A DNA stretch of 38,523 nucleotides, from the IMG/VR virus record IMGVR_UViG_3300028797_000094, positions 1-38,523 of that record; one strand, written 5' to 3'. Source of the DNA: a virus (taxonomy: Duplodnaviria; Heunggongvirae; Uroviricota; Caudoviricetes). Positions 945 through 38,517 of the stretch are shown here, one piece after another. Position numbers and translations under genes: made by a program. The notes under the pieces were generated by a model that was not told where the DNA came from, searched no databases, and was given only the letters and a program-made list of their open reading frames with translations. How positions within the stretch are numbered: position 1 is the first letter of the stretch; each line of letters opens with the position of its first letter.

Positions 945-1370
945 ATGTTAAAAGATAATAAAAAGGCTTGTAAAAAGCTATATAAATATTATAAAAAAGA
1001 GTTTGAAGATTGTAAAAAATGTATGTTAGAATTCAGACCAAATTTTTTATTTGGACTTGAAACTTTAATGCTTTATTTACAATATATGCAAGACACAATT
1101 GTCTTAACAAAATCAATAAAAGAAGACGATGAAGAAATGAATAGTACAACATTTACAACTATTGGTGCTGTATTAATGTGCTATTCAAAATATAAACAAT
1201 GTATTTTAGAAGGTACAACTATTATAAATGATAAATCTTTACCTGAAGAAGAAAGGACTAAGTTGTATAATGCTGTGCTTAAACAGGCAAAGTTAAATTG
1301 GAATACATTGTGGAATACTGTTTCAATCGCAATGGAAGGTTGGTACGTAAATGAATGTTTTATGAAATAA
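945..1370 (+). CDS. Hypothetical protein
   Basis: Open frame (TTG 933 or ATG 945 start) fills the gap between genes. Start is uncertain. Confidence 0.55.
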   Translation: MLKDNKKACKKLYKYYKKEFEDCKKCMLEFRPNFLFGLETLMLYLQYMQDTIVLTKSIKEDDEEMNSTTFTTIGAVLMCYSKYKQCILEGTTIINDKSLPEEERTKLYNAVLKQAKLNWNTLWNTVSIAMEGWYVNECFMK

Positions 1371-3267
1371 AGTAATTTTACATAACTTTGGTAGTTATAA
1401 TCATGCTGAAGTTGATTTACTAGACAAAGGTTTTTGTTCTGTTGTTGGTGAAAATAATTATAAAAAAGATAATGCTTTATCAAATGGTTCTGGAAAATCT
1501 TTTCTTTGGTCTGCATTATGTTATACTATAACAGGTGAAACAATTCAAGGACTTAGGAAGAATTTAAAGAACTTAAATAATTCTGATGATAATACAGGTT
1601 ATACTGCTGTTGATATTACAGTTGATAATGATCACTATGTAATCACAAGATACTTTGCTCCAAAATCAAATTTAACTATTGTTAAGAATGATGTTGATTT
1701 AAGTGGTAAAACATTTACAGAAAGTGAAAAGATTTTAGGTGAACAATTACCGGCATTAACAAAAGAATTAATTTCATCAACTGCAATTCTTGGTCAAGGT
1801 TTGCCAACTAAGTTTTCAAGCTTAAAACCTTCTGGTCGTAAAGATTTACTTGAAAAATTAACTAATTCAGACTTTATGATTGAAGACGTTAAGAATAGAA
1901 TTTCGGCAAGACAAGAAGTAATCTTAGGTCATATTAGAACTATTGATGATGCATTATTAGTTGCAAATACTAAATTATCTACAACAAATAATCAACTTGA
2001 TCAAGTTTTAAAAGATATTCAAAATTTCCAAAGACCTGATTATAATAAGTTAATTTCTGACACTGAAAAAGATTTAATAAATTGTAATACAGAATTAGCT
2101 GAAGTAAATGCAAATATCAAAACAAATGATAGTTATTTAGAACAAGCAAATAATGATTTATTAAAATTTACTAATGAAAAGAGTACTGAAGTTATTAATG
2201 TAACAAATAAGTTTAATAATGACTTAAATCAAAAAGCTGGTGAAAAACAAAAAATCTTACTTGATATAAATACTATTTCTGGTGAATGCACAGCTTTACA
2301 AAATGAAATTCGTAGATTAAAATCTATCACTGATATTTGTCCAACTTGTGGCCAAAAAATTCCTGGCAAAGAAAAGCCAAGCACTACATTACAAGAAGAG
2401 CAATTACAAAGTAAAATAAACGCTAAAGCTGCTTTAAATGAACAATTAACTAAAGTTCAAAATGAAGCAACAATTATTCAAGAAAGTTTGGAAGCTGAGA
2501 AAAAAGTAGTTAATGATAGATATGATGCTGCTATTAATCAAATTAAAATTCAACAAGTAGATTTAAAGAATTTTGCAACTCAACAACAAACAAGATTAAA
2601 TACTTTAAATCAAAGAATTCAAAATTTAAATACTGGCTTAGCAAAATTAAAATATGAAAAAGATCATAATGAGCAAGCATTTACTAATTTACAAAATTCA
2701 AAAGGTGCACTTGAAACTGAAACTAAGCGTTTAACAAAAGTTATTGAAGATGAAACTGCTAAAAAAGAAGAAGCAACTGCACACTTAGATATAATTAGAA
2801 AAATGGATGCTTTAGCTAAACGTGATTTTAGAGGATATCTATTATTAAATATTATTGAATATCTAAATAAGAAAGCAAAAGAATATAGCCAAGTTGTTTT
2901 TGGAACAGATGAATTAAATATTTATTTAGATGGAAATGATTTAAATATTTCTTATTGTAATAAACTATTAGATAATTTATCTGGTGGTGAAAGACAACGT
3001 GTAGATTTAATTGTTCAATTTGCTTTAAGAGACTTATTAAGTACGCAATCAAATTATAGTTCTAACATTTTAGTTCTTGATGAAATTTTTGACAACTTAG
3101 ATAGAGTTGCAACAGAAAATATTTTAAATTTAATTACAACAAAACTTTGTGATATTGAATCAGTATTTATTATTTCACATCATGCTGACGAATTAGAGTT
3201 AAGCTATGATTCTGAATTAAAAGTAGTTAAAAATTCTGATGGTATCAGTGAAGTATTTGCAATATAG
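1351..3267 (+). CDS. SbcC/Rad50/T4 gp46-like SMC-family ATPase (638 aa with TGA=W)
   Basis: ATG1351 gives MNVL(W=TGA 1363)NKVILHNFGSY. Contains Walker A SNGSGKS, long coiled coil, zinc hook CPTC, signature LSGGERQR, Walker B LVLDE and H-loop IISHH. Confidence 0.92.
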
Positions 3268-3277
3268 GAGACTTAGT

Positions 3278-4102
3278 ATGCTTTGAAGAAAACCTGCTGA
3301 CATGAAATACACTGACATGTGTATTTATATTGATGAGAATATTCCAAAAATTGGTGGTGAACCTGGAGCTTATCCAGATATAGAAGATACAGTATATAAT
3401 TATTTATACTTACTAACAAAAGCTTTAAGTATTAAAAAGCGTATGATCCAAAATTTTGAAGATTATGATGGTTATGCTTTATACGCCGCAACAAGATTAT
3501 TTGTAGCAATTCAAAAGAATTATCAAAATCAAGGCAAGACAATTAAAGGTAAAGTAATTAGACCGATTAAATCTTGTCTAAATTATACAAAAGCTCTATT
3601 ATATCCAATGAAAGTTGAATATATGAGAGAAACTTTTGCACAAGTAATTTCTGAAGAATTTGCTTCTAAACAATTTGATGCATATACATTTAAAGAAAAG
3701 CTTAAAGAACAGGCAGCTGAAGCCCAATCAAATATATCATTGCAAATAGATATCACTGATACTATTAAGAGCATTCCTTATTATATTGAAAAGACTTTAG
3801 CTAGCTCACCATTTCATAAAAATTCACCTGAATGAAAAAAGCTTAAAATAACAATCTTATTAAATTTCTTACATGGAATAAATACAACTGGTAGTATTGA
3901 TTGAAATCCTGTAACAGTTTTACTCTGAAAATTACCAAAATCTTTAATTGGTTATGTTAAAATTCTATTAACTGAATTCTATACTTTATTTAAAACAGAA
4001 ATGATGGATTGTTTTACAAATAATCAAATGAGTGATGAAATGTTAGAAAAACTTATTTCTTCACCAGATGGTATGTATAAGGAAGATTATGAAAACGACT
4101 AG
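3278..4102 (+). CDS. Hypothetical protein, possibly a divergent sigma-factor-like (gp55-type) regulator (274 aa, 4 TGA)
   Basis: GGAG RBS, then ML(W)RKPADMKYTD..., read through TGA 3833 to TAG 4100-4102. The helical pattern EDTVYNYLYLLTKALSIKK...DGYALYAATRLF...SCLNYTKALLYPMKVEY loosely recalls sigma region 2. The ORF is solid; the function is speculative. Confidence 0.35.
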
Positions 4103-4487
4103 TATTAATGATAGTATAAATTCCTTACATTTATCTGACATATATTCATTAATGTTATTCATTTTGTATAAAGTGCAGGAAATACCAGATTATGCAGTTT
4201 TAAGTGAATTATGTTATTTATGTGATGGAAATAATTTAACAAGAATTTTAACTTATTTTGCAGGTAAAACAGTTAAGTTTCCAACAGAAGCTGAAATGTC
4301 TGTTTTAACAAATGCTTTATTGCTTTATCAATATGTAAATATTGAACACAATGCTTTTGTAGAAGCTCAAGCAAAACTTGAAAATGTTACACCAAAGCAA
4401 CGTGAAAAGATTACTGAGCTTTACTTAAAGATCCTACCAATTATGGCAAATTATAATATTGATAGGAGTAATATGAAGCATGAGTAA
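4089..4487 (+). CDS. Possible Mor/C-family transcription activator-like protein
   Basis: LSELCYLCDGNNLTRILTYFAGKTVKFP resembles the Mor-family 'a..l...fGG..iyiP' segment. AAGGAAG lies upstream of ATG 4089. Confidence 0.45.
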   Translation: MKTTSINDSINSLHLSDIYSLMLFILYKVQEIPDYAVLSELCYLCDGNNLTRILTYFAGKTVKFPTEAEMSVLTNALLLYQYVNIEHNAFVEAQAKLENVTPKQREKITELYLKILPIMANYNIDRSNMKHE

Positions 4488-4695
4488 ATTTGATGAAGCA
4501 TCAAGAACTTTTGAAACAAGATTATTATTTATAAAAGAATTATTTACTAATAAATATTCACAAACGGATATTATGGCACATTGTATTCAGCATAAGTTAG
4601 ATGAATCATTAAAAAAATATATTAATGAATTAGAAAAACATATGTGAAATTTAGATGGCAAAGATCCAATGGATATTCTAAAGAAAATAGATTAG
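4480..4695 (+). CDS. Hypothetical protein (71 aa, 1 TGA; absent from ORF track)
   Basis: GGAG RBS, MSKFDEASRTFETRLLFIKE...HM(W)NLDGKDPMDILKKID*. Exactly fills the gap to the next gene. Confidence 0.7.
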
Positions 4696-4705
4696 GAGAC
4701 AAATT

Positions 4706-5035
4706 ATGGCATTACAATCAAATATAATTACTGATATTAGTTCTGCTACAAAAATTCCAGTAAAGGTTTTAAATTCAATTAGTACAAAAGAAGTTCTTTG
4801 TATTGGTAGTGCAATTCATGATGCTATTGAAGCAAAAGAAGATGTAGCACTTTTAAATATTGGAATTGGAACATTAAGTGTAAATATTGCAGACGGTCAA
4901 TGTAAGTTTATTCCAAGTCAAGAATTAAAGAGTACAATTAAAAAGTGTATTAATAATAAAATTGACCCGCTTGAAGAAACTTTAGAACAAGAAATTATTG
5001 ATAAGCTATTAAAGACATACGAAGAGGTATTCTAG
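4706..5035 (+). CDS. Hypothetical protein
   Basis: AGGAG RBS; tightly coupled to its neighbours. Confidence 0.7.
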   Translation: MALQSNIITDISSATKIPVKVLNSISTKEVLCIGSAIHDAIEAKEDVALLNIGIGTLSVNIADGQCKFIPSQELKSTIKKCINNKIDPLEETLEQEIIDKLLKTYEEVF

Positions 5036-5036
5036 T

Positions 5037-5591
5037 ATGGTTGATGAAGAATTAAAAGATATTGCAGCTCAAACACCAACTGAAGATGAAGCAAGAGTAC
5101 CTGCTTTAAAAATGGTAGAACTTGATGCTGAAGCTAAAGATCTTTTAAACCAACTTATTGTTGAAACTGATGTTAATAAAACAAAAGATTTAACTAATCT
5201 TTTTAATCAAAATCAAAATAAGAAAACAATGGTCAGAGTTGATAAGTTAAGCCAATTAATGGATACTTTAACTGATCAAGCAATTAAAAGATATCAAGAA
5301 CGCCCAGATGAAATTTCAAATCAAGAACTTTTCCTTGGCTTAAAGACTATTCAAGATATTATTGAAAAATCTCGTAGACAAGTTATGGGAGCAGATGAAA
5401 AACCACTTATTCAAATTAATCAACAAAATAATGATTTTTCAGGAACTCAAACACAAACTAAAGAATCAAGGGAACGTGTTATGGCTGCAGTAAATAGTAT
5501 TTTAAAAGGTATTATGCCTGAAAATGCACCAATTTATACAACACCAACTGTTGATGCTGATGAGGAGAAAGATGATGACCAACAAGATTAA
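5037..5591 (+). CDS. Hypothetical helical protein, possibly terminase small subunit
   Basis: Two long amphipathic helices followed by a short PLIQINQQNN strand, an architecture seen in TerS proteins. No diagnostic motif. Confidence 0.3.
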   Translation: MVDEELKDIAAQTPTEDEARVPALKMVELDAEAKDLLNQLIVETDVNKTKDLTNLFNQNQNKKTMVRVDKLSQLMDTLTDQAIKRYQERPDEISNQELFLGLKTIQDIIEKSRRQVMGADEKPLIQINQQNNDFSGTQTQTKESRERVMAAVNSILKGIMPENAPIYTTPTVDADEEKDDDQQD

Positions 5592-5871
5592 AGAAGTTTT
5601 AAAAAAGTTAAAAATTGATAAAACAGGAAATTATGAAAATCATTTTTATATTGTTTATTTAGACAATAGTAATGATTATGCAAAAGCTTATACTCAATTA
5701 GAAGATAATGCAATTAATACTGAATATCCAAACTTTGAAACAAATACAAGCGGAACAACTACTAAAGTTATCAATTATTTTGAATTAGACTTAGATAATA
5801 TTATTTATAATATATTCTTAATTGCTGATTTTAATAATGATAAGTATTATATTAAAATTGGAGAAAAATAA
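5572..5871 (+). CDS. Hypothetical protein
   Basis: GAGGAG RBS before ATG 5572; the stop overlaps the next start (TAATG). Confidence 0.7.
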   Translation: MMTNKIKEVLKKLKIDKTGNYENHFYIVYLDNSNDYAKAYTQLEDNAINTEYPNFETNTSGTTTKVINYFELDLDNIIYNIFLIADFNNDKYYIKIGEK

Positions 5872-6242
5872 TGAGCTTAACTGTTGATTATGCAGTGGAA
5901 AGAACTTTTACACAAACTTTAGAAATTGATGATCAAGGTAATACTTGTATAAAAGCTACTGGTCTTGTTAATGGTCTTGGTGAAGCAGATTTCTATATGT
6001 TTATTAGAACAATTGCTGGTGCAGTAACAACTTTAACAGTTGGCCCAATTACACCAGACTTTGCAATTTTAGTAAATGGTTTTAAGGTAGAAGCTAAGCA
6101 ATTTAAATATAATGAAAAACGAATTAAAAAAGAAATTAATACTTTTTTAAATGGTAATAATATTGAAAATGCTTATGAAATTTCAGTTAATGAAGGTATA
6201 GAAAATTTTCCAAATATTGTTGATATGTTTGAAAATTTATAG
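5871..6242 (+). CDS. Hypothetical protein
   Basis: GGAG RBS; translationally coupled to the previous gene. Confidence 0.7.
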   Translation: MSLTVDYAVERTFTQTLEIDDQGNTCIKATGLVNGLGEADFYMFIRTIAGAVTTLTVGPITPDFAILVNGFKVEAKQFKYNEKRIKKEINTFLNGNNIENAYEISVNEGIENFPNIVDMFENL

Positions 6243-6251
6243 GAGTTATTT

Positions 6252-6617
6252 ATGGCAGTAAAAGATGTACAAGAATATTATTATAGTGTATTAGAACAAT
6301 ATTTAGCGGCTAAAGATGATTTAAAAGATTTTGAAAAAGGCTTAGCTGATGGCTTTGTAACTGAAGAACAGGTACAAGAATTAGCTGAAGAGCTTGCTAA
6401 TATTGAACAAAATAAAGAACGACTTGAATATATTTTCTTCTTATTAAATATGCCAAATCGTAAAAATAAAAAGCCTAAATATACACTACAGCAACAAAAA
6501 CTTTTAAATAGATTAAATAAACACAATAATGATGGTGAAGCTGTTTTGGCTGAAAATGAACAAGCTATCACAAATATGAAAAATAAAATTTCTAATTTGC
6601 AAAATGAACAGCATTAA
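6252..6617 (+). CDS. Hypothetical coiled-coil protein
   Basis: AGGAG RBS; followed by a terminator-like hairpin. Confidence 0.7.
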   Translation: MAVKDVQEYYYSVLEQYLAAKDDLKDFEKGLADGFVTEEQVQELAEELANIEQNKERLEYIFFLLNMPNRKNKKPKYTLQQQKLLNRLNKHNNDGEAVLAENEQAITNMKNKISNLQNEQH

Positions 6618-6633
6618 GCTGTTTATTTTTTTT
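6607..6633 (+). terminator. Putative intrinsic terminator
   Basis: AACAGC-attaa-GCTGTT stem followed by a T-run. Confidence 0.5.
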
Positions 6634-6667
6634 AATTTAATAATTTATTAAAATATTAAAAAAATAA

Positions 6668-6679
6668 TTTGCTAAATTA
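6668..6679 (+). promoter_or_regulatory. TTTGCTAAATTA motif copy 1 (putative phage promoter)
   Basis: Intergenic, after a terminator, about 20 nt before ATG 6700. Confidence 0.7.
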
Positions 6680-6699
6680 ATAGTAAAGGAGCTGATTAT

Positions 6700-7428
6700 A
6701 TGATTATAACAGATTTAAATTTATTACAAACTCCAGCTGAACCTCTTGAGTTTTTAACTGAAGCTGGCACACAACGTGAAGAGGGTGAAGAAATAATTGC
6801 AAAATTAAAAGCAGCAATGGAAGAAGAAAAATTAGTCGTTCTTACTGCACCTCAAATTGGAATTAATAAACGTATTTTTTGTATTAGATTTGCAGACCAA
6901 ATTAAAGCATTTATTAATCCAATTATTACTAAAAAAACTGGTAGCATTATCGGCCCAGAAACATTTAATTCACTTCCTGGTAAAGAAATCTTAATTGCAA
7001 GACCAGAAGAAATTAGAGCTGTTTATTACACAGATGATTTTAAATATGAAGATAATAAATTTTTAAAAACAGCTGCAAGATTATTTGATCAACAATGTCA
7101 AGTATTAGATGGAATTTTACCAAATGAATTAGGTTTAGTTTCAGACATTGAAGAAGATGGTTCTTTATGGGATTTAACAGATGATGAATTTAAACAAGTA
7201 GTTGATGTTTATAAAGAATTTGTTAAAACTAAAACTAAAGCTTTTAATGAAGCAATTTCTGAAGCTGAACAAGGAGCTTATAAAAATCTTAAGTTCACTG
7301 AAGACGTTATTAATGGTCGTACTGAAGTACATGAAGACCCAAGAAGAATTAGAGAGCAACAAAATAAAATTACTCAAGCTCAAAATAAAGAAACATTTAA
7401 TAACTTTTTAAGAAAGAAGAAAAAATAA
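6700..7428 (+). CDS. Peptide deformylase-fold protein, catalytically degenerate
   Basis: LTAPQIGINKRIF, FINPII and ARLFDQQCQVLDGIL align to PDF motifs, but EGCLS has become ETFNS and HExxH is lost. Confidence 0.8.
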   Translation: MIITDLNLLQTPAEPLEFLTEAGTQREEGEEIIAKLKAAMEEEKLVVLTAPQIGINKRIFCIRFADQIKAFINPIITKKTGSIIGPETFNSLPGKEILIARPEEIRAVYYTDDFKYEDNKFLKTAARLFDQQCQVLDGILPNELGLVSDIEEDGSLWDLTDDEFKQVVDVYKEFVKTKTKAFNEAISEAEQGAYKNLKFTEDVINGRTEVHEDPRRIREQQNKITQAQNKETFNNFLRKKKK

Positions 7429-7643
7429 TGCCAAATAAAGAAGAAATTATTAAAGATTTTTATGGACGTTTTTTAGGAATAATTGAAACATGTCCAAATG
7501 GGGACCAAATTGCAAGAGTTTGGTCAAGTAGACAAATTGTTGGTTTTTATCGTAAACAGTATGACCATACTACTGATTTTTATGGTAGAGTTGTTTCACA
7601 GGGAAATACTGTTATTTCATTGATTTACAAGAATTTAAAATAA
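7428..7643 (+). CDS. Hypothetical protein
   Basis: Coupled start (TAATG); internal repeat DFYGR occurs twice. Confidence 0.65.
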   Translation: MPNKEEIIKDFYGRFLGIIETCPNGDQIARVWSSRQIVGFYRKQYDHTTDFYGRVVSQGNTVISLIYKNLK

Positions 7644-7656
7644 GGAGATAAGAAAG

Positions 7657-7833
7657 ATGCCAAAAACAAAAATTATTAGTTTAGAAATTCCTGACTATTT
7701 AAGACAAGCTCTTAAAAAAGAAGCATTTGATAGAGACTTATCACTTTCTGCATGTATTAGACAACTATTAATTGAAAAGTTAGAAATAGAAGTGCCTGAA
7801 CAGGAGAAAGAAGATGGCAAAGAAACTGAATAA
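7657..7833 (+). CDS. Ribbon-helix-helix (CopG/Arc-like) DNA-binding protein (58 aa; absent from ORF track)
   Basis: AAGGAG RBS. MPKTKIISLEIPDYLRQALKKEAFDRDLSLSACIRQLLIEKL has the alternating beta strand plus two helices of RHH proteins. Confidence 0.75.
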   Translation: MPKTKIISLEIPDYLRQALKKEAFDRDLSLSACIRQLLIEKLEIEVPEQEKEDGKETE

Positions 7834-9628
7834 AACAGATAGAATGCTTGTTATTGTAGAAAGCCCAACTAAAGCAAAAAAGATTACTAAGATTTTAGAT
7901 GATGCTGGCTATAAAGTAATGGTTATGGCAAGTAAAGGTCATATAATGACACTTGCTGATAAACGAACAAGCTACAAAAATTCTGGTGTTTTTCCTGAAA
8001 ATGATTTTGATTTAAATTTACAAATAGATGAAGATCATTATCAAATAGTTCAAAATTTAAAAGAACAGGCTGACCGTGCATCTAAAGTTGTTATCTTCTC
8101 AGACGCTGACCGTGAAGGAGAATTAATTGGTTGGTCATTAGTTAAATTTTTGAAATTAAAGCCAGAATTATACTATAGAGCTTATGCTCATGAGATTACA
8201 CCTAAAGCAGTTGTACAAGCTATTGATAATGCCTTAGAATTAGACCAAAATTTAGTCCAGGCCGCATTAACAAGACTTTCTATAGATAAATTAATAGGCT
8301 ATGCTTTATCACCGATAGCGAGAAATTATTTAGGTGCAAGATCTGTTGGTCGCTGTCAATCTATTGGCTTAAAAGTAATTGTTGACCGTGAAAAAGAAAT
8401 TCAAAATTTTATTCCAGAAATTTATTTTGAACTATTTTTAAACTTCAGTAAAAACAATGTTCCTTTTAAAGCTAAGTATGACAGTGAAAGAATAACTGAA
8501 AAATATAAAATTGATAAAGTTATTGAAGATTGTAAAGGAAATGATTTTGTTATTTCAGATATTAAAAAACGTGAAAAAAAAGAATCACCAAAACCACCTT
8601 TCTGTACTGCAACTTTCCAACAAGAAGCAGCAAGTAAATTAGGAATTGGTGTTAAAGAATCAATGTCAGTTGCACAAAAGTTATTTGAAGATGGTAAAAT
8701 TAGTTATCATAGAACTGATGATACTACACTTGCGCCTGATTTTATTACTGAATTAACAAATTATGTTAAAACAAATTATGGAACTGTAGTTGCTCCACGA
8801 GTTGGCAAATCTGATGCTTTAGCTCAAAATGGTCATGAAGCAATTAGAATTACTGACCCAGCTTTAACTCCAGAATTATTTAATGAACAAAATTCTAATA
8901 ATATTCATCAAAAAGTATATAAACTTATTTGGCAAAGAACTATTGCATGTGTTCTCCCTGATGCAAAATTTTCTGAAACTAAATATGTAATTACTAATAA
9001 TAGTCATAATTTTATAATGGTCTCAAATGAATTAATTGAACCAGGCTTTAAACAAGTATATAATTATGAAAAAGATGATGAAGAAATCATTAAGGAAACT
9101 TTTGATAAAGATGAAGTTTTACAAAACTGTGAATTAAAGATGGAAACTAAATCTACACAACCTCCTGCAAGATTTAATGAAGCAACATTAGTTCAACAAT
9201 TAAAAAATCTTGGAGTTGGTAGACCTTCAACTTATGCAACAATTGTAGATACAGTTGTAAGTCCTTTACGAGGCTATGCAACAGTTGAAGATAAAAAAAT
9301 TAAGCCTACTGATAAAGGAATTCAATTATCAGAATTCTTAGATAGAGCTTTTCCAAATTTAATTAACTTAAATTATACAAAAGAAATGGAAGAAAGTTTA
9401 GATAAAATTGCAGCAGGTAATTTAGATAGATTAACATATTTAAATGAATTTTTCAAAAATTTAGAAGATTCTATTAAGACAAATTCAGAACAATTAGATA
9501 TGCCAGACTCTACAGATATATGCCCAGAATGTGGTGCAAAATTAGTAATTAGAAGAAGCCGCTTTGGTAAATTATTTAAAGGCTGTTCTAATTACCCTAA
9601 CTGTAGACACATTGAGAATATAAACTAA
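7814..9628 (+). CDS. topA: DNA topoisomerase I (type IA)
   Basis: Toprim IVESPTKAKKI, SDADREGE, SVGRCQS, catalytic ISYHRTD, GHEAIRIT, GVGRPSTYA and a C-terminal CPECG...GCSNYPNC Zn ribbon. Confidence 0.97.
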   Translation: MAKKLNKTDRMLVIVESPTKAKKITKILDDAGYKVMVMASKGHIMTLADKRTSYKNSGVFPENDFDLNLQIDEDHYQIVQNLKEQADRASKVVIFSDADREGELIGWSLVKFLKLKPELYYRAYAHEITPKAVVQAIDNALELDQNLVQAALTRLSIDKLIGYALSPIARNYLGARSVGRCQSIGLKVIVDREKEIQNFIPEIYFELFLNFSKNNVPFKAKYDSERITEKYKIDKVIEDCKGNDFVISDIKKREKKESPKPPFCTATFQQEAASKLGIGVKESMSVAQKLFEDGKISYHRTDDTTLAPDFITELTNYVKTNYGTVVAPRVGKSDALAQNGHEAIRITDPALTPELFNEQNSNNIHQKVYKLIWQRTIACVLPDAKFSETKYVITNNSHNFIMVSNELIEPGFKQVYNYEKDDEEIIKETFDKDEVLQNCELKMETKSTQPPARFNEATLVQQLKNLGVGRPSTYATIVDTVVSPLRGYATVEDKKIKPTDKGIQLSEFLDRAFPNLINLNYTKEMEESLDKIAAGNLDRLTYLNEFFKNLEDSIKTNSEQLDMPDSTDICPECGAKLVIRRSRFGKLFKGCSNYPNCRHIENIN

Positions 9629-9633
9629 TTTTA

Positions 9634-9645
9634 TTTGCTAAATTA
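9634..9645 (+). promoter_or_regulatory. TTTGCTAAATTA motif copy 2
   Basis: Intergenic, upstream of ATG 9684. Confidence 0.7.
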
Positions 9646-9683
9646 ATTGATTTGAAAAATCATAAATATAAAAGGAGATATAT

Positions 9684-10748
9684 ATGATTAATTTATTAAC
9701 TCCGATAGAAAAATTAGACAGAAATGCTTGGATAAATGCTTATATTATTTTACCAAATGGCATATCTCAAAAATTTCCAGACTATGTATTTAGCTTAACT
9801 TTTAATTCAAATAATAGTATGGCTAATATTATAAGTTTATGCAAAAAACTTTATAATTGTGTTTGTGCAAAAACAATTGATGCATCAGCTTATGACATAC
9901 TTTGTACACTTGCTAAAGATACTGATTTTGTAGTTAAAAATAGAGATAGTTTTTCTCCACATAGTACACACAAAAGTAGACATATTGATTATGAACTAGC
10001 ATGTAAGTATTTTATTGATTGGACAAATGAGATAGGAATAATTTGGAATGATGAATTATTATCAAGCCAAGGGGCTGAAGAACTTAAAAAAACATACTTA
10101 GGTCAAATTATTACTATGTCAAAGATGTTTAAATCACAACAATATAATAATGCAACAAAAGCTAGAACAAATGCACCTAGTCAAGGAATTAAGGGACAAC
10201 CAAAAAATGCTTATAAATCTACTGGAAGTCAACTTAATAATGCTGTTGGACTTTTAAGTACACCTGGTCAAAAAGAAAATGTTCCAAAAACAATTTATAA
10301 AATTGTCGCTGATCAAATTGGAGCAAATATTCCAGCTATATTTGTAAAACCAGTTGATAATCCAGCACATGGTTTTCATGCTCGTGCAAATGCAAATAAT
10401 GAGCTGATTATAAGAGCAAGCTCTGGAAATGGCTATACAGATTTACCTTGCTATTTTACTGATTATGATAGTGCTAAAGTTTATTTACAAAAATTCTTGG
10501 CAAGTGGTAAAGGTAATAAATTCAATAATTGGACAATTAAGCCTGTGCTTGCCAGAAAAAGTGGCTATTATAAATTTAAAACTGAATTTGGACCTGTTTA
10601 TCTTGGGGCAGAAAAATTAAATGAACAACTTGGCATAGTTGAAGGTAGTGAAATTTTACAAGAAGCCCCAGAAGAATTTGAAGAAGATTATAATTTTAAA
10701 ATAGATAATCCAATTGAATTTGCTGAAATAATGATGAAATATGAATAA
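9684..10748 (+). CDS. Hypothetical protein
   Basis: AAGGAG RBS, 354 aa, acidic C-terminal tail after EKLNE/EILQE. Confidence 0.75.
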   Translation: MINLLTPIEKLDRNAWINAYIILPNGISQKFPDYVFSLTFNSNNSMANIISLCKKLYNCVCAKTIDASAYDILCTLAKDTDFVVKNRDSFSPHSTHKSRHIDYELACKYFIDWTNEIGIIWNDELLSSQGAEELKKTYLGQIITMSKMFKSQQYNNATKARTNAPSQGIKGQPKNAYKSTGSQLNNAVGLLSTPGQKENVPKTIYKIVADQIGANIPAIFVKPVDNPAHGFHARANANNELIIRASSGNGYTDLPCYFTDYDSAKVYLQKFLASGKGNKFNNWTIKPVLARKSGYYKFKTEFGPVYLGAEKLNEQLGIVEGSEILQEAPEEFEEDYNFKIDNPIEFAEIMMKYE

Positions 10749-12073: not shown

Positions 12074-12086
12074 AAAGGAGACATTT

Positions 12087-13295: not shown

Positions 13296-13298
13296 TTT

Positions 13299-15086: not shown

Positions 15087-15104
15087 TATTAAGGAGATAT
15101 AAAT

Positions 15105-15659
15105 ATGAAAGTTTTAAAAGAATCAAAGGAAAAATTACCAATTGATTTTATTACTCAATTTATTTCAAAAGGTTGAGAAGAAGTTGGAAATTTAAAAGCA
15201 AGTATTGATGCAATTAAACAAACTTTTTCTGATGTTAAAGATATTGCAGATATTCTTCAAGACTTATCAGATGCATATTTAATTGCTATTGGACAAATGC
15301 AAGGTGTTTTACAAGATAAGAAATATGTTGATGTCCCAGAAGAAGTAAAAGATAACTTAAAAGAATCTTTAAATGAAGAACTTCCAGATGCTAAAACTTT
15401 AGGCTTAGACAAACCTGAAGAAGAAGCTGCACCTGCTGAAGAACCAGCTCCTGCTGAAGAAGAAACACTTGCTCCTGAATTAGATTTAGAAGATGAAGAT
15501 GTTAAAGAATCTTTAAATGAAGATGTTACTATCATTATTAATGATGAAGATAAACCTTCATTTGATGGTGCTTTTGAATATTTCTGTGATTTTGATGATC
15601 CAGAACCAAGTGAAGAAAATCTTCATGCACAAGCTTATCCTTTTGTAAAGCAACTTTAG
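15105..15659 (+). CDS. Acidic hypothetical protein, possible internal head protein (184 aa, 1 TGA)
   Basis: AAGGAG RBS, MKVLKES start, KESLNE twice, and a helical hairpin resembling a degenerate ferritin-like pair. Confidence 0.6.
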
Positions 15660-23949: not shown

Positions 23950-23969
23950 TATAAAGGAGATTCAACCAG

Positions 23970-29690: not shown

Positions 29691-29745
29691 ATTGATTAGT
29701 TTAAGACTATCTAATTATTTAAAAATAAATAATAAGGAGACAAAT

Positions 29746-30612
29746 ATGAAGTTATTAAAGGATTATAAGTTAATTTATAGTGCTATTCGTGATGGTAAGT
29801 TAGGTATTTATGCTACAAAAGATTTTCCATCTGAAGATGATGCTAAACTTACTTTTGTAAACAAAGAAGGTAAAGAACTAACTGAAGAAGAATTAAAAGC
29901 TATTAAATTAGTTTATGTTAAAGATGGTTCTTTATGTTATAGTTTAGAAAATATTCCAACAGAAGATGCTGGTTCATTATATGCATATAGTAATGGTGAA
30001 TTAGTTTATGGTGATGAGGAAACTGCTCCAGATATTGATCCTGAACCTGAACCTGAACCTGAACCAGAACCTGAACCAGAAGTACTTGCTAAATGAGATT
30101 TAGTTAAAGATAAAGATAGTTGGGATGCTGCTTTCGCAGATGAAAATAGTGCATTAAGAAAATATTATGATTATTATGATGCTGCAAACTTCCCTTATCA
30201 AGAAGACTTATGGAATACAGTTGAAGATAGAGCTGCAACAGGCTTAGATATGTTAACTGAAGATGGCAGAGCTCCTTGAGATGGTGGTGTACCAGTAGTT
30301 GATGAAAATGGTCATTCGATTTATACCAACTGTGTACGTTGCTGGAAAGGTGCTGTAAATGCTCCTGGTGCTGTTTATCCTTGGGCTGTAATTGCTCCAG
30401 AAGCTGGCTTTGAAGGTAAAATTAGATTCAACTATAAAGATGAAGAAGCTGTTTATCCTTGGGGCGAAGAAGACAAAGTATTTGGTAGAGGCTTTGCAAT
30501 AGCTTCAATTCCAAATGAATTAGGTAAACCTGAACTTAAAGTTAATGAAGCTGGCGAAGCTGACTTAGCAATTAATAAAGAAGACTTAGTTATTACATTA
30601 GTTAGAAAGTAA
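29746..30612 (+). CDS. Putative capsid decoration/surface protein A (288 aa, 2 TGA)
   Basis: N-terminal ~92 aa is paralogous to the next gene, followed by a (PE)n linker and a Trp/Tyr-rich C-terminal domain. Located in the head module. Confidence 0.55.
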
Positions 30613-30630
30613 TCATTTAAGGAGATAACT

Positions 30631-31767
30631 ATGAAATTATTAAACGATTATAAAGTTATTTATAGTGCTTATCGTGAAGGTGAATTACACGGTTATGCAA
30701 CTAAAAAACTTCCAGCTGCTGATGATGTAGCACTTACTTATATTAATGAAGAAGGTACTGAATTATCTGCTGAAGATATTAAAGCTATTAAATTAGTTTA
30801 TTCTAAAGGTGAATCTTTATATTATAGTTTAACAGGTTTTCCTGCAGAAGATGATCACAAGTTATTTGTATACTGTGAAGATGAATTAGTATTTGGTGAA
30901 GAAGATGCTCCTACTCCTGCTGAAAAATATCAAGTAGAAGTTGCTGCTATTACTCATGCAGTAATTACTGGTGCTGGTAAATATGCAGAAGGTGCTAATG
31001 TTAAGATTACTCTTAAAGCTGCAAATGGTTATAGATTTGCTGAAGGTAATGCACCAAAAATTAATGATGAAGATTTAGCTAAAGAAGGTAATAAATTTGT
31101 TTATGAATTTGTTATGGGAACTGAAGCTGTTTCTATTGAAATTGCAGATGTGTTAATTGAAAAAATTCCTGAACCTGTTCCTACTCCAAAATATGCAGTA
31201 ACTGTTCAAAATATTGAAGGTATGGCATTTAGTGGTACTGGAGAATTTGAAGAAGGTGAAGAAGTTACAATTTTAATTAGAACAAAGAATGGTTACCAAT
31301 GAGCTGCTGGCAATGCTCCAAAAGTAAATGGTGTAGCATTAGAAGCTGTTTCTGGTAATAAATTTAAATATACATTTAATATGCCTGCAGAAGCAGTTAC
31401 AGTTGTATTTGAAGACGTATTAATTGAAGAAATTCCTGCTCCAGCTACGCCAAAAGTTTATTATTATATGGGTGAAGACAAATTAACTGAATTTGATGCA
31501 AATAAATTTGAAGCTGAAGACTTTGATGAATCAGCAACATTTGTTGAACATACATATGCTACTTATGTAGACAGTTATTATGCAATAGCAGTTCCAGCAA
31601 GTAAACCAATTCAACATATTTATCAAAATGGTTTAGAATCATTTGATGTATTAGAAATGTTTGAAGAACACCAAATAAATGTTGGAAATGATGCTTATAG
31701 ATTATATGTTACTGTTGATATTCATGTAGCTGAAATTGAACATGATACATTCAAGTTTGTATTCTAA
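30631..31767 (+). CDS. Putative capsid decoration/surface protein B with two tandem InlB-B-repeat-like beta domains (378 aa, 1 TGA)
   Basis: Same N-terminal domain. Repeats YQVEV..GAGKYAEGANVKI..NGY..YEFVM and YAVTV..GTGEFEEGEEVTI..NGY..YTFNMP. Confidence 0.6.
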
Positions 31768-31809
31768 TAAAATAATAATTTAATAAAAATAAAAATTTAT
31801 AAAAAGATA

Positions 31810-31821
31810 TTTGCTAAATTA
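31810..31821 (+). promoter_or_regulatory. TTTGCTAAATTA motif copy 7
   Basis: Upstream of the protease-capsid operon; extends as TTTGCTAAATTAATAGTAAA, like the copy at 6668. Confidence 0.7.
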
Positions 31822-31844
31822 ATAGTAAAAAGGAGAAATCCAAA

Positions 31845-33650
31845 ATGGCTAAAGATTATAAAAATATTATGGAAGCCTTTAAGATGATGCCTCTTTCAGA
31901 AGATGAAAAAAGCAAGCGTCATATTTTAGGTAGACTTTTTGGACCAATCGCAACAACTAAAGATAGTACTCGTAATGGTAGATTTTATAATGCACAATTA
32001 TGGGAATCTGCATTAAAAGATGAAATCTTCTTAGAAAAAGTTGCAACAAAGAGTTTATTCTTAGAGTTAGGCCATCCAACAGATAGAGAAGAAATTGATA
32101 TGTCTAAAGCATGTGCCTGCATTCCAGAAGTACCTAAGATTGTAAATGGCGACTTATATGCTTATGTTGATATTCTTGATACACCTAATGGTCGTATTTT
32201 AAAAACATTATGTGATTATGGATTCCAACCTGGTATTAGTTCACGTGGTTCTGGTGATGTTGATATAAATAATGAAGTTGACCCAGAAACATTCTTCTTA
32301 GAAACATTTGATATCGTAGGTATTCCTGCTGTTAAAAAGGCACGTTTAGCAGTTTGCGAATCTTTAGACACTGATAATATTAAATTAAGAAAAGCTTTAA
32401 AAGAATCTTTAAATAAAGAAAAAGTTGAAGATCAAGAAATTGTTAAAGAAGCATTAAGTAATTTAAAATTTACTTTAAATGAAGATGCTGATGAACCATT
32501 TGAAGATATTGAAGTAGGCGAACCTGAAATCGTTGAACCAGATGCAGAATTTGTTGAACCTGAGTTTGATGATGAAGAAGAAGAAGGTGAAGCTCCTGCA
32601 GCTTTAGAAGAACCTGAAAATGAAATGCCTAATATCACAGTTGGTGAATTAATTGATCATTTAGATGATTTTGATAAAGAAGCTCCAGTTGAATTTGCAC
32701 CTATTGAAATTGAAGGTGTTGAATATAAAGTGGATGCTTGAAATTATGTAGCAGATGATGAAAAGCTACATATTAACTTAGATATCATTCCTGCAGAGGA
32801 AGATGATATAAATAGTGAAGAGGTTGCTGAACAACCTGAAGATGCTACTGATGAAACAGTAGTTGATGAGCCTGTTCTTGCTGGTGAAGAAAATCCTAGT
32901 GATGAAGCCATTGATGATGGAGCAGCTGAACTTATTGCAAGTTTAAAGGAAATGATTCGTCAAAAAGAAAGTCTTGAAGCTGATGCCAAAGCTCTTAAAG
33001 AAAGTGTGGCAGTTAGTGATACTAAAGTTAAGAAACTTGAAGAAGAACTTAGTCAGTACAAGAATTCATTTGCAAGATTAAGCACATTAGCAGCTGAATC
33101 AAAAGAAGCAAAGAAAGAAGTTCAAAAACTTACTGAACAATTAAACATTAAAGAACAAACAATTAAAACATTACAAACTAACCAAGCAAATGCTAAAGCA
33201 CTTACTGAAAGCGTTAATGAGCAAGCTAATAAGTCAAAAGTTCTTGCTGAGAAATTAGCTACAAGAACATCTGAACTTGAAAAAGCTCAAACTGCATTAA
33301 ATGAACAGGCTGAAAAGCATCAAGCTGAAATAGCTAAGTACACTCGTGTTGCTAAAAACTATAAAGCTAAATATCTTGAGGCTGCTCATAAATATGTAGA
33401 AATGAAAGCATCAATGCTAGGTGTCAAGACTAGTGAAATTACTAGCAGACTTAATGAAGGTTGAACTTTTGATGATGTTGATAGAGTTTGTGATAAGATG
33501 CTTGAAAGTGTAAAACCAAGTTTTGGCTTGGCACGTGACGCTAAAGTTAAATTAGTTGAATCAAGACAACCAAGAACTACAGTTAATAATGTAGATGGCG
33601 GTTATGAAATTGATGATGACTTATTAATCTTAGCAGGTTTAAAAAAATAA
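31845..33650 (+). CDS. Prohead protease (T4 gp21-like) fused to scaffold/core coiled coil (601 aa, 2 TGA)
   Basis: TRNGRFY, ELGHP, ILDTPNGRIL, GISSRGSG and FDIVGIPA, then an acidic linker, a coiled coil and C-terminal LILAGLKK. Confidence 0.9.
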
Positions 33651-33681: not shown

Positions 33682-35001
33682 ATGAGACAAAATTTACTTG
33701 AAACTTATTCAAGACAAATTAAAGTTGCTGAAGCATATGTTGCTAAAAACTTTGATGGCAGAAATGTTTCAGATAACACTAAATTAGCTACTGCTGTATT
33801 ACTAGATAATACAAATCGTTGGATCACTGAAGCTTTAGAAGGAAGCTTTACTGATGCTACAAGACGCTCTGACTTAGGCGCATGGAAGAAATTCTGCTTA
33901 AACTTAACTAATATCGCTGTTCCATCACTAATCGCTAATGATTTAGTAATCGTTCACCCAATGACATCTTACAGTGGCTCAGTTGCATACTTAAAGTATG
34001 TTTCTAAGACTGATAAAGGTGGAATCAAAAAAGGTGATGAATTCAATAGCGTATTCCGTATGGGAGATCCTGCTCTTGATAAAGAAGCAAGAAGAGAATT
34101 CACTTCTCAAATCATCGTTGAACCTACTGGTTCTGCATTAGCTTTCGAAGCTGAAGAAAACGGTCTAGTTTACGAAGACAACAATGCAATTAAATATGCT
34201 ACTTACAAATCAATCTTCGCTGATGGTTCATTCGTTTATGGCGAAGAAATTGCTGAAGATGCAGTTAAAGTTGCATACGTTGCAAAGCAATTCCAAATGA
34301 ACTATGTTCCATCTCAAGATATCCCTACATTAGGACCAGTTATGGAACACATCGCATTAGTTGCACAACCAAGACGTATCGCTGTTAAATACGATCAAAT
34401 TAGTGCATTCCAAGCTAAAACTGATTATGGTTTCAGTCTTGACAAACAAATCGCTGAACAAGCTTGTGGTGAATTAGCATATGAAATCGATACTGAAATC
34501 GTTAATATGTTAAAAGAAGGTGCTGGTGAAGCTCTTCCTGAATTAACATTCTCTAAGACACTTCCTGTCGGCGTTTCTAAATTCGAACATTACAATGGAT
34601 TCTTAGAAGTATTTGAAGCTGCAAGAGCTATCATCTATAAGAGAACTCGTAAATTCCATCCTAACTACATGGTAATCGCAGCTGATTGCTTACAAGTATT
34701 ACGTTTCGTTAATGGTTGGTCAGCAGTTAAGAATGCTAAGATGAATGGTCCTTACAAAGTTGGTGAAATTGATGGCGTTGCTGTATACGTTTCTCCAGAA
34801 CTTGAAAAAGGTGAATTCTTCATGGGCTTAAATGGTAACGATATGATGAGCAGTGCTGGTGTTTATGCACCTTACATGGCAATCGTTCCAACTCAATTAC
34901 TTGGCACACCTGATGGTGGATTAATGCAAGGCTTCAGTACTTGGTATGCTAAAGCTTTATTAAATGAAAACTTACTAGTTGCTGGTAAGATCATTGACTA
35001 A
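33682..35001 (+). CDS. Major capsid protein, T4 gp23-like
   Basis: PSLIANDLVIVHPMTSYSG, ELAYEIDTEIV and AGVYAPY. Strong high-expression codon bias (TTC/AAC/ATC/TAC). Follows the protease-scaffold gene. Confidence 0.95.
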   Translation: MRQNLLETYSRQIKVAEAYVAKNFDGRNVSDNTKLATAVLLDNTNRWITEALEGSFTDATRRSDLGAWKKFCLNLTNIAVPSLIANDLVIVHPMTSYSGSVAYLKYVSKTDKGGIKKGDEFNSVFRMGDPALDKEARREFTSQIIVEPTGSALAFEAEENGLVYEDNNAIKYATYKSIFADGSFVYGEEIAEDAVKVAYVAKQFQMNYVPSQDIPTLGPVMEHIALVAQPRRIAVKYDQISAFQAKTDYGFSLDKQIAEQACGELAYEIDTEIVNMLKEGAGEALPELTFSKTLPVGVSKFEHYNGFLEVFEAARAIIYKRTRKFHPNYMVIAADCLQVLRFVNGWSAVKNAKMNGPYKVGEIDGVAVYVSPELEKGEFFMGLNGNDMMSSAGVYAPYMAIVPTQLLGTPDGGLMQGFSTWYAKALLNENLLVAGKIID

Positions 35002-35079: not shown

Positions 35080-35096
35080 TCTGAAAGGTGAAACCT

Positions 35097-36779
35097 ATGG
35101 TAAATTTATTCTATTGAAATGATATTATTAATGCTGGCGACTACTATGCACAATGATTAGCTACTAAGCTATATAAAGAAGTTAAATATAGTCGCAGACC
35201 AAATCTAGTTATTACTGGTTCTATCTTAAGTTGAAATGAACTTAATAATAGTACTATTGTTTGGGGTAGTGGTTTACATAATAGTAATATAAATGAGTAT
35301 TGTAGAATAACAAATAAATCTAATTTTAAAGCTGTCCGTGGTCATTTAACAGCTAAAAAATTACAACTTAATAATATAACTGTTGGTGACCCAGGCATAT
35401 TAATTTCTAAATATTATAAAGCAAAAAATTGTATTAGTAGAAAAAGATATTGCTTAGTTTGTCATTGGAAAGACTATGAAGAATGTAAAAAATTATATAG
35501 TTCTTATATAGATGTTATTAGTATGGGCACTACTAATATTGAGGCACTTGCTGATACTTTAAATAAATATGAATTAGTATTATCTACTTCATTACATGGA
35601 ATAATTTTTGCTCACAGTTATAATATTCCTGCAATTCATGTTGAATTTAATAAGCTTGAAAGTATAGATGATTTTAAATATAAAGATTATTATTCAACAA
35701 TAGATATTAAATATGAAAAGAAAACTTTAACTAAAACTTTATCAAAAGATTTAACTATTTTTAAAAATCTATATCAAAATAAAAATCTATACAAACCATC
35801 ACAAGATTGTATTAAAACTCTTCAAAATAATTTAATAAAAGTTTTACCAACAGAACAAGATTTAAATCCAAAATATAATGCAGTATTATGTGCTATTGCA
35901 AAAAATGAAAATAATTATATTAATGACTGAGTTGAATATTATTTAAATCTTGGTTTTGATCATATTTATTTATTTGATAATAATGATTCTAGCACACCTT
36001 GAGTTGGTGGAAGAATTAAACAAATAGATAAAGTTACTGTCTTTAATGTTAATAATCAACATATAAAAGGTATGCAATTAAAATGTTATAATAATTTCTA
36101 TAAACAGTTTCGTAATAACTTTAATTGAGCTTTATTCTGTGATATAGATGAATATTTAACAGGAATTGAAAATATAAATACTTTTTTAGATAATAGAAAA
36201 TTTAAAAACTTTGAAATGATAAGAGTTAAGTGAAAACTTTTTGGCGATGATGATTTAATTGATCGTAATAGACAAATACCAATTTATAAAGCACTTACAA
36301 AAGTTATTATAAATAATTCTTTGTCAAATCAAGGAAAATGTTTTGTACGTGGAAGCTTAACAAATATTTGTGTTGGCTCTTGCCATTATGCTTTCCGTGG
36401 AGATTGAGATATTAATAATTTAGAAAAAAGAGATTTAGAAAAGACTACAACTGTTTTAACTGAATGCTTACCTTCTGGTATTATTTGTAATAGTAGAATT
36501 AGTATTAAAGAAGATTATTCTAATGAAACTGTTTATTTAAATCACTATATGACTAAAACCTTGGCTGAATTTTTAGAACAAAAGTTTAATCGTGGTGATG
36601 CTTGTTTTGATACTAAACAAATATCACTTGATTATTATTGACAATTAAATAAAAAGACAGAAGAAAAACTAAACTTTGCTAAAAATTATTTTAAAACTAT
36701 TCAAAAAGAAATAAAACCTGCAAAGAAACCAGCTAAAACATATTTTGGTGGGGCTAATTCTTATTTTAGAGGCTGATAA
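35097..36779 (+). CDS. Polysaccharide pyruvyltransferase (ExoV-like) fused to GT-A glycosyltransferase (GT2/GT92-like) (560 aa, about 10 TGA)
   Basis: N-domain: FY(W)..NAGD, GSIL, VWGSG, AVRGHLT, GDPG, STSLHGIIFAHSYNIP. C-domain: CAIAKNEN.YIND(W)VEYYLNLGFDHIYLFDNN, N(W)ALFCDIDEY, LNHYMTKT. Confidence 0.88.
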
Positions 36780-36781
36780 TT

Positions 36782-37564
36782 ATGTTAAAAAAATGTTTTG
36801 GAATACCAAGCTGACTTCCTGAAAAAGAGCCAGCACGAACACAAAGAAAAGAAAGAATAAATAGATTATTTAAACAACTAAATGATTTATGACCTGATGT
36901 TGATATATTAGTTATTGCACAAAACTGAAAAGATTTTAAGCCAATTAAAACTAATAATAAACAAATAATTAAAAAATATCCTGAACTTGGAATTTTAGGT
37001 GCAAGAAAAACTTTACAAGAAGAGTTTTTAAAATTAAAATATGATTATATTATTATGTTTGATGATGATGCTATTATTGAAACAAAAAATAATGCACATA
37101 TTAAATATATGGAATTATTAGACAAATACCCACAGGGTTTTTGCTTTATGCCTGGAAAAAATAGCAATTATCATCCATATTGTGCAGCTCAATTAAACCT
37201 TTGTGCTATATCAAGATTTATTTATGAGCAAGAACCTATGGTAGATATTGATCCGCAAAAGGATGAGGGCTTTGAAGACAGTATTTATGCTTGTTTATTA
37301 TATCAAAAGTGAAATAAATATGAATTTAAGCCTCCAGTTGATATAAGATGCACACAATTTCTAAATACTAAAGAACAAGCACCATCAACTTGAGCACATA
37401 TTCCTGGAAAAATACGACCATTTACCAAAATGATAAGAAATACTAATGCTATTCAAGCATATATTACTAAGTATAAAAAGATGCCAAAAGATCTTAAAGC
37501 TTTCTTAGAAGAAAAAGAAGAAAAGAAGACATCTTATAGCTATAGCTCATATATTGGTTTCTAA
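36782..37564 (+). CDS. GT-A-fold glycosyltransferase (260 aa, 5 TGA)
   Basis: FGIPS(W), GILGARKTL, YDYIIMFDDDA (DxD) and GFEDS. Confidence 0.75.
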
Positions 37565-37565
37565 T

Positions 37566-37609
37566 AAAACGCGATTTAAGGCTTAAAATTTAGCCTGTAT
37601 CGCGTTTTT
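37566..37609 (+). terminator. Putative intrinsic terminator
   Basis: AAAACGCGAT..AGGCT..AGCCT..ATCGCGTTTT long stem. Confidence 0.7.
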
Positions 37610-37670
37610 ATTCATTTTATATAAGCTTATTAGCCTGTTAATATTTAATTATTATTTTATTAAATTATTA

Positions 37671-37682
37671 TTTGCTAAATTA
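37671..37682 (+). promoter_or_regulatory. TTTGCTAAATTA motif copy 9
   Basis: Intergenic. Confidence 0.65.
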
Positions 37683-37748
37683 TACGTAAAATAAGTTTTT
37701 TGAAAAAATTGAAAATATTTTCATTTTCTTTCAAAATGCTATAATATA

Positions 37749-37760
37749 TTTGCTAAATTA
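37749..37760 (+). promoter_or_regulatory. TTTGCTAAATTA motif copy 10
   Basis: Intergenic, upstream of ATG 37789, preceded by TGCTATAAT (37737-37745). Confidence 0.7.
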
Positions 37761-37788
37761 ATTGATTGATTTGGAGGTATTAAACTAT

Positions 37789-38517
37789 ATGACAATGGTT
37801 GACCTACTCGAAGAAATCAAACTAGAATTAACAGGTGGAGTTCTTGAACTTGAAATTGAAGATTCTACTATAGAATTAATTATTAAACAGAGTTTAAGAG
37901 AACTTGATAAGTATTATGATGATACTTCAATGGTTACTGTACCTTTTAGTTCATGTATTGATTTATCTGGATCTGAGTTAGATTTAAAAGACAAAGTAAA
38001 TCACATTGTAAAAATCTATAGAACAGAAGCTATGGGTGCTGCTGCTGGAGAAAATGCATATAATGACCCACTTTATATGCAACAATGAATGATATTCAGT
38101 AGTGGTGCAGGAACAATGTATTCTTTAAAAGATTATGTTATGAACTATGCTGCCTATGCTGAATTAAATAGACTTAAGAACACAATGTCAACTGACTTGT
38201 CTTTTAAGCTTGACAAGATTAATAATAAATTATATATAAATAGTACACTAAGTAAACCTTGGGCTGTTACTATTGAATATGTTCCTAAACTTACACAAGT
38301 AGAACAAATAAAAGAAGAATATTGAATTGATGTTTTACAAAGACTTGCTCTTGCAAGAACTAAAATTGTTTTAGGAAGAATTAGAACACGTTTCACACAA
38401 TCAAATGCATTATGAACAATGGATGGTGAAACATTATTAAATGAAGGAAATACAGAAAAGAAAGAACTAGAAGATATGCTAATTGCTAATAGCAATTTAA
38501 TAGCTTATGTAGATTAA
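37789..38517 (+). CDS. Neck/head-completion protein, T4 gp13-like (242 aa, 3 TGA)
   Basis: GGAGG RBS. IKLELTGGVLELEIED, then Y(W)IDVLQRLALARTKIVLGRIRTRF..TMDGETLLNEG..EKKELEDML. Confidence 0.8.

Follow-up and report, generated by a model that had tools for sequence, protein, structure and literature searches.

Tryptophan at in-frame TGA codons of a jumbo phage with its own tRNA(UCA) and tryptophanyl-tRNA synthetase: probable recoding of a standard-code host cell

The first 38,523 nucleotides of the IMG/VR virus record IMGVR_UViG_3300028797_000094 (Caudoviricetes), which are the whole stretch of DNA analyzed here (hereinafter the window; bases 1-38523 of the record), hold genes that are repeatedly interrupted by in-frame TGA codons. 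This raises the question of how TGA is read in this virus, and in what kind of cell. An earlier note, made from the letters of the window alone, took TGA to be reassigned to tryptophan (Trp, W) and offered two settings for this: a large T4-like phage of a host that itself uses genetic code 4, or a recoded phage with suppressor machinery of its own, encoded elsewhere in its genome. Our analysis points to the second. The best explanation, to which we assign a probability of roughly 85%, is that the window forms the left end of the genome of a tailed jumbo phage (237 kb, T4-type head module) that switches a standard-code host cell to TGA = Trp by means of its own tRNA(UCA) and tryptophanyl-tRNA synthetase (TrpRS). 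The record is a single linear contig of 237,392 bp with a G+C content of 29% and a CheckV completeness estimate of 100%.

The coding density of the window depends on the meaning given to TGA. Under table 11, the window breaks up into 42 fragments of open reading frames that cover 65.4% of it; with TGA as a sense codon, it resolves into 31 back-to-back genes on the + strand with 94.7% coding; a comparison of this kind had been proposed in the earlier note. A control with TAG as sense reached only 66.7%. For the whole record, the corresponding rise is from 64% to 91%. The + strand genes between 1351 and 38517 contain 85 in-frame TGA codons against 37 TGG, in good agreement with the approximately 80 TGAs previously counted by hand, and the genome as a whole has 456 TGA and 466 TGG. 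All genes called under code 4 end in TAA (203) or TAG (51), as had also been remarked, which is in part a consequence of code-4 gene calling itself. Code 25, in which TGA is read as glycine (Gly, G), as in phages of Absconditabacteria or Gracilibacteria, is indistinguishable from code 4 by coding density; moreover, a recent jumbo-phage survey took TGA recoding to mean Gly (PMC13037316).

The residues that homologs carry at the TGA columns speak for Trp and against Gly. We fetched 68 relatives from IMG/VR with the capsid protein and translated the window proteins with X at each TGA, so that the alignments are unbiased. Across all relatives, the codons opposite the TGAs of the window are TGG (279), TGA (109), TAT/TAC (130) and TTT/TTC (76), with no GGN. 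We then defined as standard-code the 23 relatives that show no in-frame TGA across up to ~3100 aligned codons. In these, 56% of the 329 residues aligned to a TGA are W, 20% Y and 15% F (91% together), against a background of 0.85% W; Gly, the residue that the earlier note had named as speaking against its own reading, does not occur once, although it makes up 5.5% of the background. The profile is almost equal to that at the window's own TGG sites (W 60%). Both TGA columns of the portal protein are W in 21 of 21 standard-code relatives, the three columns of the 251-aa protein at the right end of the window are W, W and F, and those of the 588-aa and 688-aa proteins are W, Y or F, with the exception of one column of the 588-aa protein (M, F).

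The conserved motifs that the earlier note had quoted as interrupted by TGA (written * here) were all found: CGT*GTGKT at the Walker A of the PhoH-like ATPase, TGA codons 91 and 111 flanking the P-loop of the MoxR-type ATPase, and IND*VEYY and FN*ALFCDIDE in the glycosyltransferase. Its added statement that family members typically have Trp at such positions holds for the phage PhoH subfamily and fails for PhoH in general. The solved PhoH structure 3b85 has A, L and V at codons 124, 150 and 244, the other three TGA columns lying upstream of the aligned stretch, and no PhoH homolog is present among the 23 standard-code relatives. These residues looked like counter-evidence until the subfamily homologs and their codons were examined: hundreds of closer homologs have W at all six TGA columns, where it is near-invariant in the subfamily alignment (A1), and for each of the six, the Walker A column included, one or more of three homologous genes have TGG. 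Trp at these columns is therefore typical of this phage PhoH subfamily only. Because W dominates the aligned columns and TGA and TGG interchange in PhoH, we conclude, as far as comparison of sequences can tell, that TGA stands for Trp in the recoded genes, as the earlier note had proposed. The absence of Gly from all 329 positions and the TGG codons at all six PhoH columns led us to reject the Gly reading, to which we give practically no chance; further, the suppressor tRNA described below has a G73 discriminator, and the synthetase on the phage is TrpRS rather than GlyRS.

Four genes have a TGA 0-4 codons ahead of their TAA or TAG (window 36774-36779; genome 84346-86088, 165744-166049 and 237084-237308). 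In the pyruvyltransferase-glycosyltransferase gene of the window, TGA is the final sense codon, immediately before TAA. These near-terminal TGAs could either be true stops, followed by a back-up stop, or encode a C-terminal Trp.

The suppressor machinery that the earlier note had placed elsewhere in the genome is indeed encoded there, outside the window and in TGA-free DNA. ARAGORN found 20 tRNAs in the record. The code-change module occupies genome positions 229814-237093 (loci L172, L072, L001 and L173), after which the contig ends, and comprises, in order:
229814-229888: tRNA(UCA), which folds into a normal cloverleaf, has the discriminator base G73 and has its CCA end encoded
between tRNA(UCA) and TrpRS: full-length Lon protease (TIGR00763, 809 bits), TGA-free
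232345-233430: TrpRS, a class I synthetase (TIGR00233, 317.5 bits against a cut-off of 176.75), 0 TGA
234260-237093: array of 18 tRNAs, the last of which is a separate tRNA-Trp(CCA)

In a BLAST search of tRNA(UCA) against five candidate host-lineage genomes, no tRNA gene matched. Release factor 1 (RF1), which the earlier note had suggested looking for alongside these elements, was not recovered: a search of the whole record returned no RF-1 domain protein (PF00472). The remaining ARAGORN call, of 89 nt at genome 110045-110133, has a tRNA-like structure whose acceptor stem is 8 bp long and whose "anticodon" has two bases; it may be spurious or an unusual tRNA.

We compared the module across five near-complete relatives, two recoded and three of standard code:
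G006 (L191), the closest relative, recoded, complete with direct terminal repeats: tRNA(UCA), Lon, TrpRS and tRNA array, no RF1
G007, recoded, linear, CheckV 100%: TrpRS, then directly RF1 (prfA, 472 bits; the pair at L185:5992-8046), then TGA-rich genes
G008, G009 and G010, standard code, linear, CheckV 95-100%: no TrpRS, RF1 or Lon found

TrpRS is thus present in two of two near-complete recoded relatives versus none of three near-complete standard-code ones. A third recoded relative (L192) has TrpRS alone, and an alignment-based scan of IMG/VR recovered three other TrpRS-bearing relatives and one distant megaphage. In the lineage formed by the present phage and its closest complete relative, both without RF1, Lon might conceivably belong to the code-change machinery, e.g., by removing the host release factor 2 (RF2) or another competitor of TGA suppression. 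This is a long shot; if true, it would represent a proteolytic route to a genetic-code switch, where the related phage G007 instead adds an RF1 gene.

The use of TGA divides the genes of the phage into two classes. First, 146 of the 254 genes (~57%) have no in-frame TGA across 30,099 codons that include 318 TGG, whereas the other 108 (~43%) have 456 TGA and 148 TGG. The heterogeneity of TGA versus TGG among genes is extreme (χ2 591, 218 df, p 3e-36; the highest of 2000 permutations reached 283). Second, the distribution is two-peaked: among the genes with at least four Trp-type codons, 35 have TGA at less than 10% and 38 at 70% or more of them. Third, the densities of TGA and TGG along the genome are anticorrelated. 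Off-frame TGA is equally frequent in both classes (74 per 1000 codons, frame +2); therefore, only in-frame TGA is avoided, which points to selection against TGA in a defined set of genes. The TGA-free set is one of replication and nucleotide metabolism, including PolA, DnaB, GyrA, GyrB, topoisomerase IA, DNA ligase, NrdD, formate-tetrahydrofolate ligase (FTHFS), Lon and TrpRS. The TGA-rich genes are structural or fibre-like, with giants of the latter kind including a 2744-aa collagen-repeat protein (43 TGA), a 2417-aa BspA-LRR protein (31) and a protein of 1672 aa that carries an S74 chaperone domain (21); the portal, PhoH, NUDIX proteins and glycosyltransferases also use TGA.

The genes of the window, all on the + strand, are as follows:
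2-619: + strand, C-terminal part of an SbcD-like nuclease (phrog_100), truncated by the contig start, TGA-free
623-916: + strand, zinc-ribbon protein, TGA-free
933-1370: + strand, 145-aa protein, TGA-free (block 2-1370 in total: 0 TGA, 4 TGG)
1351-3267: + strand, SbcC/Rad50-like ATPase (Pfam SMC_N, SbcC_Walker_B), with a lone TGA at codon 5 (position 1363), upstream of the P-loop; table 11 offers no further start before 1801
3239-4102: + strand, 287-aa protein of unknown family, 4 TGA, 0 TGG
4068-10748: + strand, TGA-free block with small unknown genes, 0 TGA, 7 TGG, which includes the next three entries
6700-7428: + strand, peptide-deformylase-like gene (Pfam Pep_deformylase)
7814-9628: + strand, topoisomerase IA (Pfam Topoisom_bac)
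9684-10748: + strand, 354-aa gene
10763-15659: + strand, MoxR-type AAA+ ATPase (Pfam AAA_3/AAA_5) with 2 TGA, one on either side of Walker A, then three genes with 3, 4 and 1 TGA; 1 TGG in total
15808-26036: + strand, four large TGA-rich genes of 1212, 870, 588 (NUDIX) and 688 aa, with 13, 9, 8 and 7 TGA, respectively
26046-28154: + strand, T4-type portal, Gp20 (Pfam Portal_T4), 2 TGA
28717-29613: + strand, PhoH-like ATPase (Pfam PhoH), 6 TGA, 0 TGG, one TGA lying within Walker A (GT-TGA-GTGKT)
29692-33650: + strand, 306-aa gene, 378-aa gene and S77 prohead protease/scaffold fusion, with 2, 1 and 2 TGA
33682-35001: + strand, major capsid protein of the Gp23 fold family (Pfam Gp23), 0 TGA, 4 TGG
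35088-37564: + strand, pyruvyltransferase-GT2 fusion (10 TGA) and a second glycosyltransferase-like gene (5 TGA) (Pfam PS_pyruv_trans, Glyco_tranf_2_4)
37762-38517: + strand, 251-aa gene, 3 TGA

The two classes also differ in their upstream sequence. The 12-mer TTTGCTAAATTA occurs in 25 exact copies in the genome, all on the + strand, with 22 of them within 120 nt upstream of a gene; nine lie in the window (6668, 9634, 15720, 22109, 29679, 31810, 35068, 37671 and 37749) and 16 elsewhere in the genome. Among the genes downstream of it, 16 of 21 contain TGA compared to 108 of 254 genome-wide (Fisher p 0.002), and isolated TGA-rich genes inside TGA-free blocks are preceded by it. We therefore regard this 12-mer as a candidate promoter element for genes of the recoded class; its enrichment before TGA genes ties TGA use to a transcription class and fits a temporal switch.

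Such a switch would probably proceed as follows. On entry into an unmodified host, the ~57% of genes that are free of TGA could be translated, with their products including the DNA polymerase, helicase, gyrase, topoisomerase, ligase, NrdD, Lon and TrpRS. The code-change module, with its tRNA(UCA), Lon, TrpRS and 18-tRNA array, belongs to these TGA-free genes. The tRNA(UCA) would be made and then charged with Trp, presumably by the phage TrpRS, and would compete with the host RF2 at TGA codons. The remaining 43% of genes, in which TGA replaces TGG, would thereby become translatable, namely those for the tail-fibre-like giants, the portal, PhoH, the NUDIX proteins and the glycosyltransferases.

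The alternative setting, a code-4 host of the Mycoplasma or Spiroplasma type whose own usage the TGA codons merely mirror, would be in keeping with the low G+C of the phage (29%) and with the fact that TGA = Trp is the meaning of code 4. The above two-class pattern argues otherwise: more than half of the genes exclude TGA while having 318 TGG and the same off-frame TGA as the rest, and the phage tRNA(UCA) and TrpRS would be redundant in such a cell. Many sister phages have no TGA in ~3000 aligned codons, and in those without in-frame TGA, 13 of 216 genes (6%) end in TGA; their hosts must therefore terminate at TGA. Further, the phage carries FTHFS (707 bits; genome 189537-191156) and the anaerobic ribonucleotide reductase NrdD (genome 135902-138094), both TGA-free, and the bacterial genomes with the nearest FTHFS (54-60% identity) allow a view of the candidate host lineages. 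These are metagenome-assembled genomes (MAGs) of 1.0-1.4 Mb; those with a name bear the labels Bacillales, Mollicutes or Bacilli. The Mollicutes labels would favor a code-4 host; however, all five of these genomes have RF2 (479-490 bits versus a cut-off of 370), as do the genomes with the nearest TrpRS. The phage TrpRS shows up to 60% identity to the order around one candidate genome. Because over half of the genes exclude TGA, the phage has its own tRNA and synthetase, sister genes stop at TGA and RF2 is present in the candidate lineages, a code-4 host is unlikely, and we see only a slim chance for it; as TGA is not the preferred Trp codon throughout the genome (by the χ2 test given above), we rejected this half of what the earlier note had offered. 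The host is probably a standard-code bacterium, a low-G+C member of Bacillota from the animal gut or rumen.

As an observation in its own right, FTHFS and NrdD point toward an anaerobic host.

Several points weigh against a temporal switch in a standard-code host as we propose it. The timing and the host both rest on inference from sequence. Some replication-associated genes hold TGA, e.g., the SbcC-like gene at its codon 5, and five TGA-free genes are also preceded by TTTGCTAAATTA. The Mollicutes and Bacilli labels of the nearest-FTHFS MAGs superficially recall code-4 lineages. As the contig begins within a gene, it is not strictly certain that the phage lacks RF1; the complete closest relative G006 has none either. 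Finally, the major capsid gene, though late, has no TGA here, and 0 TGA against 65 TGG across 18 recoded relatives (including L002, L003 and L067), such that the rule is not simply that late genes are recoded. In the same recoded relatives, the genes neighboring the capsid gene use TGA for 13-67% of their Trp codons (portal 31%, 688-aa protein 46%, NUDIX protein 67%). The most abundant virion protein seems to be kept outside the recoding.

The position of TGA within genes adds to this. Genome-wide, codons 2-26 show a mild excess of TGA (37 observed versus 25.9 expected), and TGG is depleted in the same codons of the TGA-free genes (20 versus 32.6); examples of early TGAs in the window are those at 1363, 3284, 28741-28771, 35115 and 36812. 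Together with the TGA-free capsid gene, the enrichment at codons 2-26 suggests that suppressing TGA is costly and that the codon additionally limits yield. One could go further and hold that the recoding mainly serves to keep dosage down or to prevent translation in the wrong cell, with suppression being always partial and lowering protein yield. The capsid protein being free of TGA in all 19 recoded members, next to low-copy neighbors with TGA at 31-67% of Trp codons, would agree with this, as would the bias within codons 2-26. Yet the clean split between replication and structural genes and the shared upstream motif fit a temporal class, and we consider limitation of dosage improbable as the main role, while being mutually compatible with a temporal switch.

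The switch of TGA to Trp with a phage-borne tRNA and TrpRS is rare and has already been described. Borges et al. (bioRxiv 10.1101/2021.08.26.457843) reported TGA-recoded phages of standard-code gut bacteria, with TrpRS in just two of them. Their Jade clade has genomes of ~200 kb, dispersed recoded structural modules, a standard-code "code change module" (suppressor tRNA, TrpRS and RF1) and an inferred Firmicutes host. The present phage and its relatives fit this description, as judged against the published account: the genome is of ~200 kb or more, TGA is Trp, recoded structural modules are spread over the genome, the code-change genes including TrpRS and tRNA(UCA) are in standard code, the inferred host is of the Firmicutes type, and the recoded relative G007 has TrpRS, then RF1, then TGA-rich genes. 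They differ in the lack of any RF1 hit both in this record and in the complete closest relative, in the full-length Lon between tRNA(UCA) and TrpRS, and in the surroundings of the module: in the Jade type it sits immediately ahead of a recoded lysis cassette, and here an 18-tRNA array follows it, with no lysis genes identified. The Agate phages of the same study similarly accumulate TGA in structural and not in replication genes, comprise closely related recoded and standard-code members in one clade, and have TGA as a rare stop in the standard-code relatives (6% here); in contrast, their genomes are of ~127-154 kb, and no TrpRS was reported for them. What goes beyond Borges et al. is the absence of RF1 with Lon in the module, the TGA-free capsid gene and the enrichment of TGA in codons 2-26, none of which is in that paper.

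More distant parallels exist. The TAG-recoded crAss-like and Lak phages (code 15; Peters et al. 2022, PMC9523058) also combine a phage suppressor tRNA and recoded late genes with a standard-code host; unlike here, TAG is read as Gln, the hosts are Bacteroidota, and some of these phages encode RF2 instead of RF1 or TrpRS. In Mycoplasma and Spiroplasma (code 4), TGA is likewise decoded as Trp by tRNA-Trp(UCA), but those organisms use TGA throughout the genome and lack RF2, compared to 43% of genes and a phage-borne tRNA and synthetase here.

These findings leave the established picture unchanged. Stop-codon-recoded phages lead to systematic mis-annotation of viromes, and this near-complete genome with its relatives forms a compact comparative set: recoded and standard-code members of one family with three module architectures, usable to ask what is minimally needed for switching a cell to TGA = Trp. 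In a FastTree tree of the capsid protein, a single gene for which supports were not evaluated, the recoded and standard-code members interleave, as in Borges et al. Two relatives (L008 and L007) with 73% capsid identity stand apart by a G+C content of 50%, versus 29-40% elsewhere in the family, and have 1-3 in-frame TGAs in the aligned genes.

The left end of the record interrupts the SbcD-like gene, which is still incomplete after joining both ends (window 2-619 with genome 237094-237392); some sequence is therefore absent from the record despite the completeness estimate of 100%. No large terminase subunit (TerL) was recognised by Pfam Terminase_6N in the record, nor by a PHROGs scan of the 688-aa gene upstream of the portal. 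The description "T4-like" in the earlier note is borne out by the head module, with its Gp20 portal at 26046-28154 (Portal_T4, 115 bits), S77 prohead protease at 31845-33650 (Peptidase_S77, 41 bits) and Gp23 capsid protein at 33682-35001 (Gp23, 86 bits), and does not extend beyond it. The closest capsid proteins from cultured phages, those of Bacillus phage SP-15, Listeria phage LIS04 and Bacillus phage HSE3, are only ~28% identical, which makes the phage a distant relative at most.

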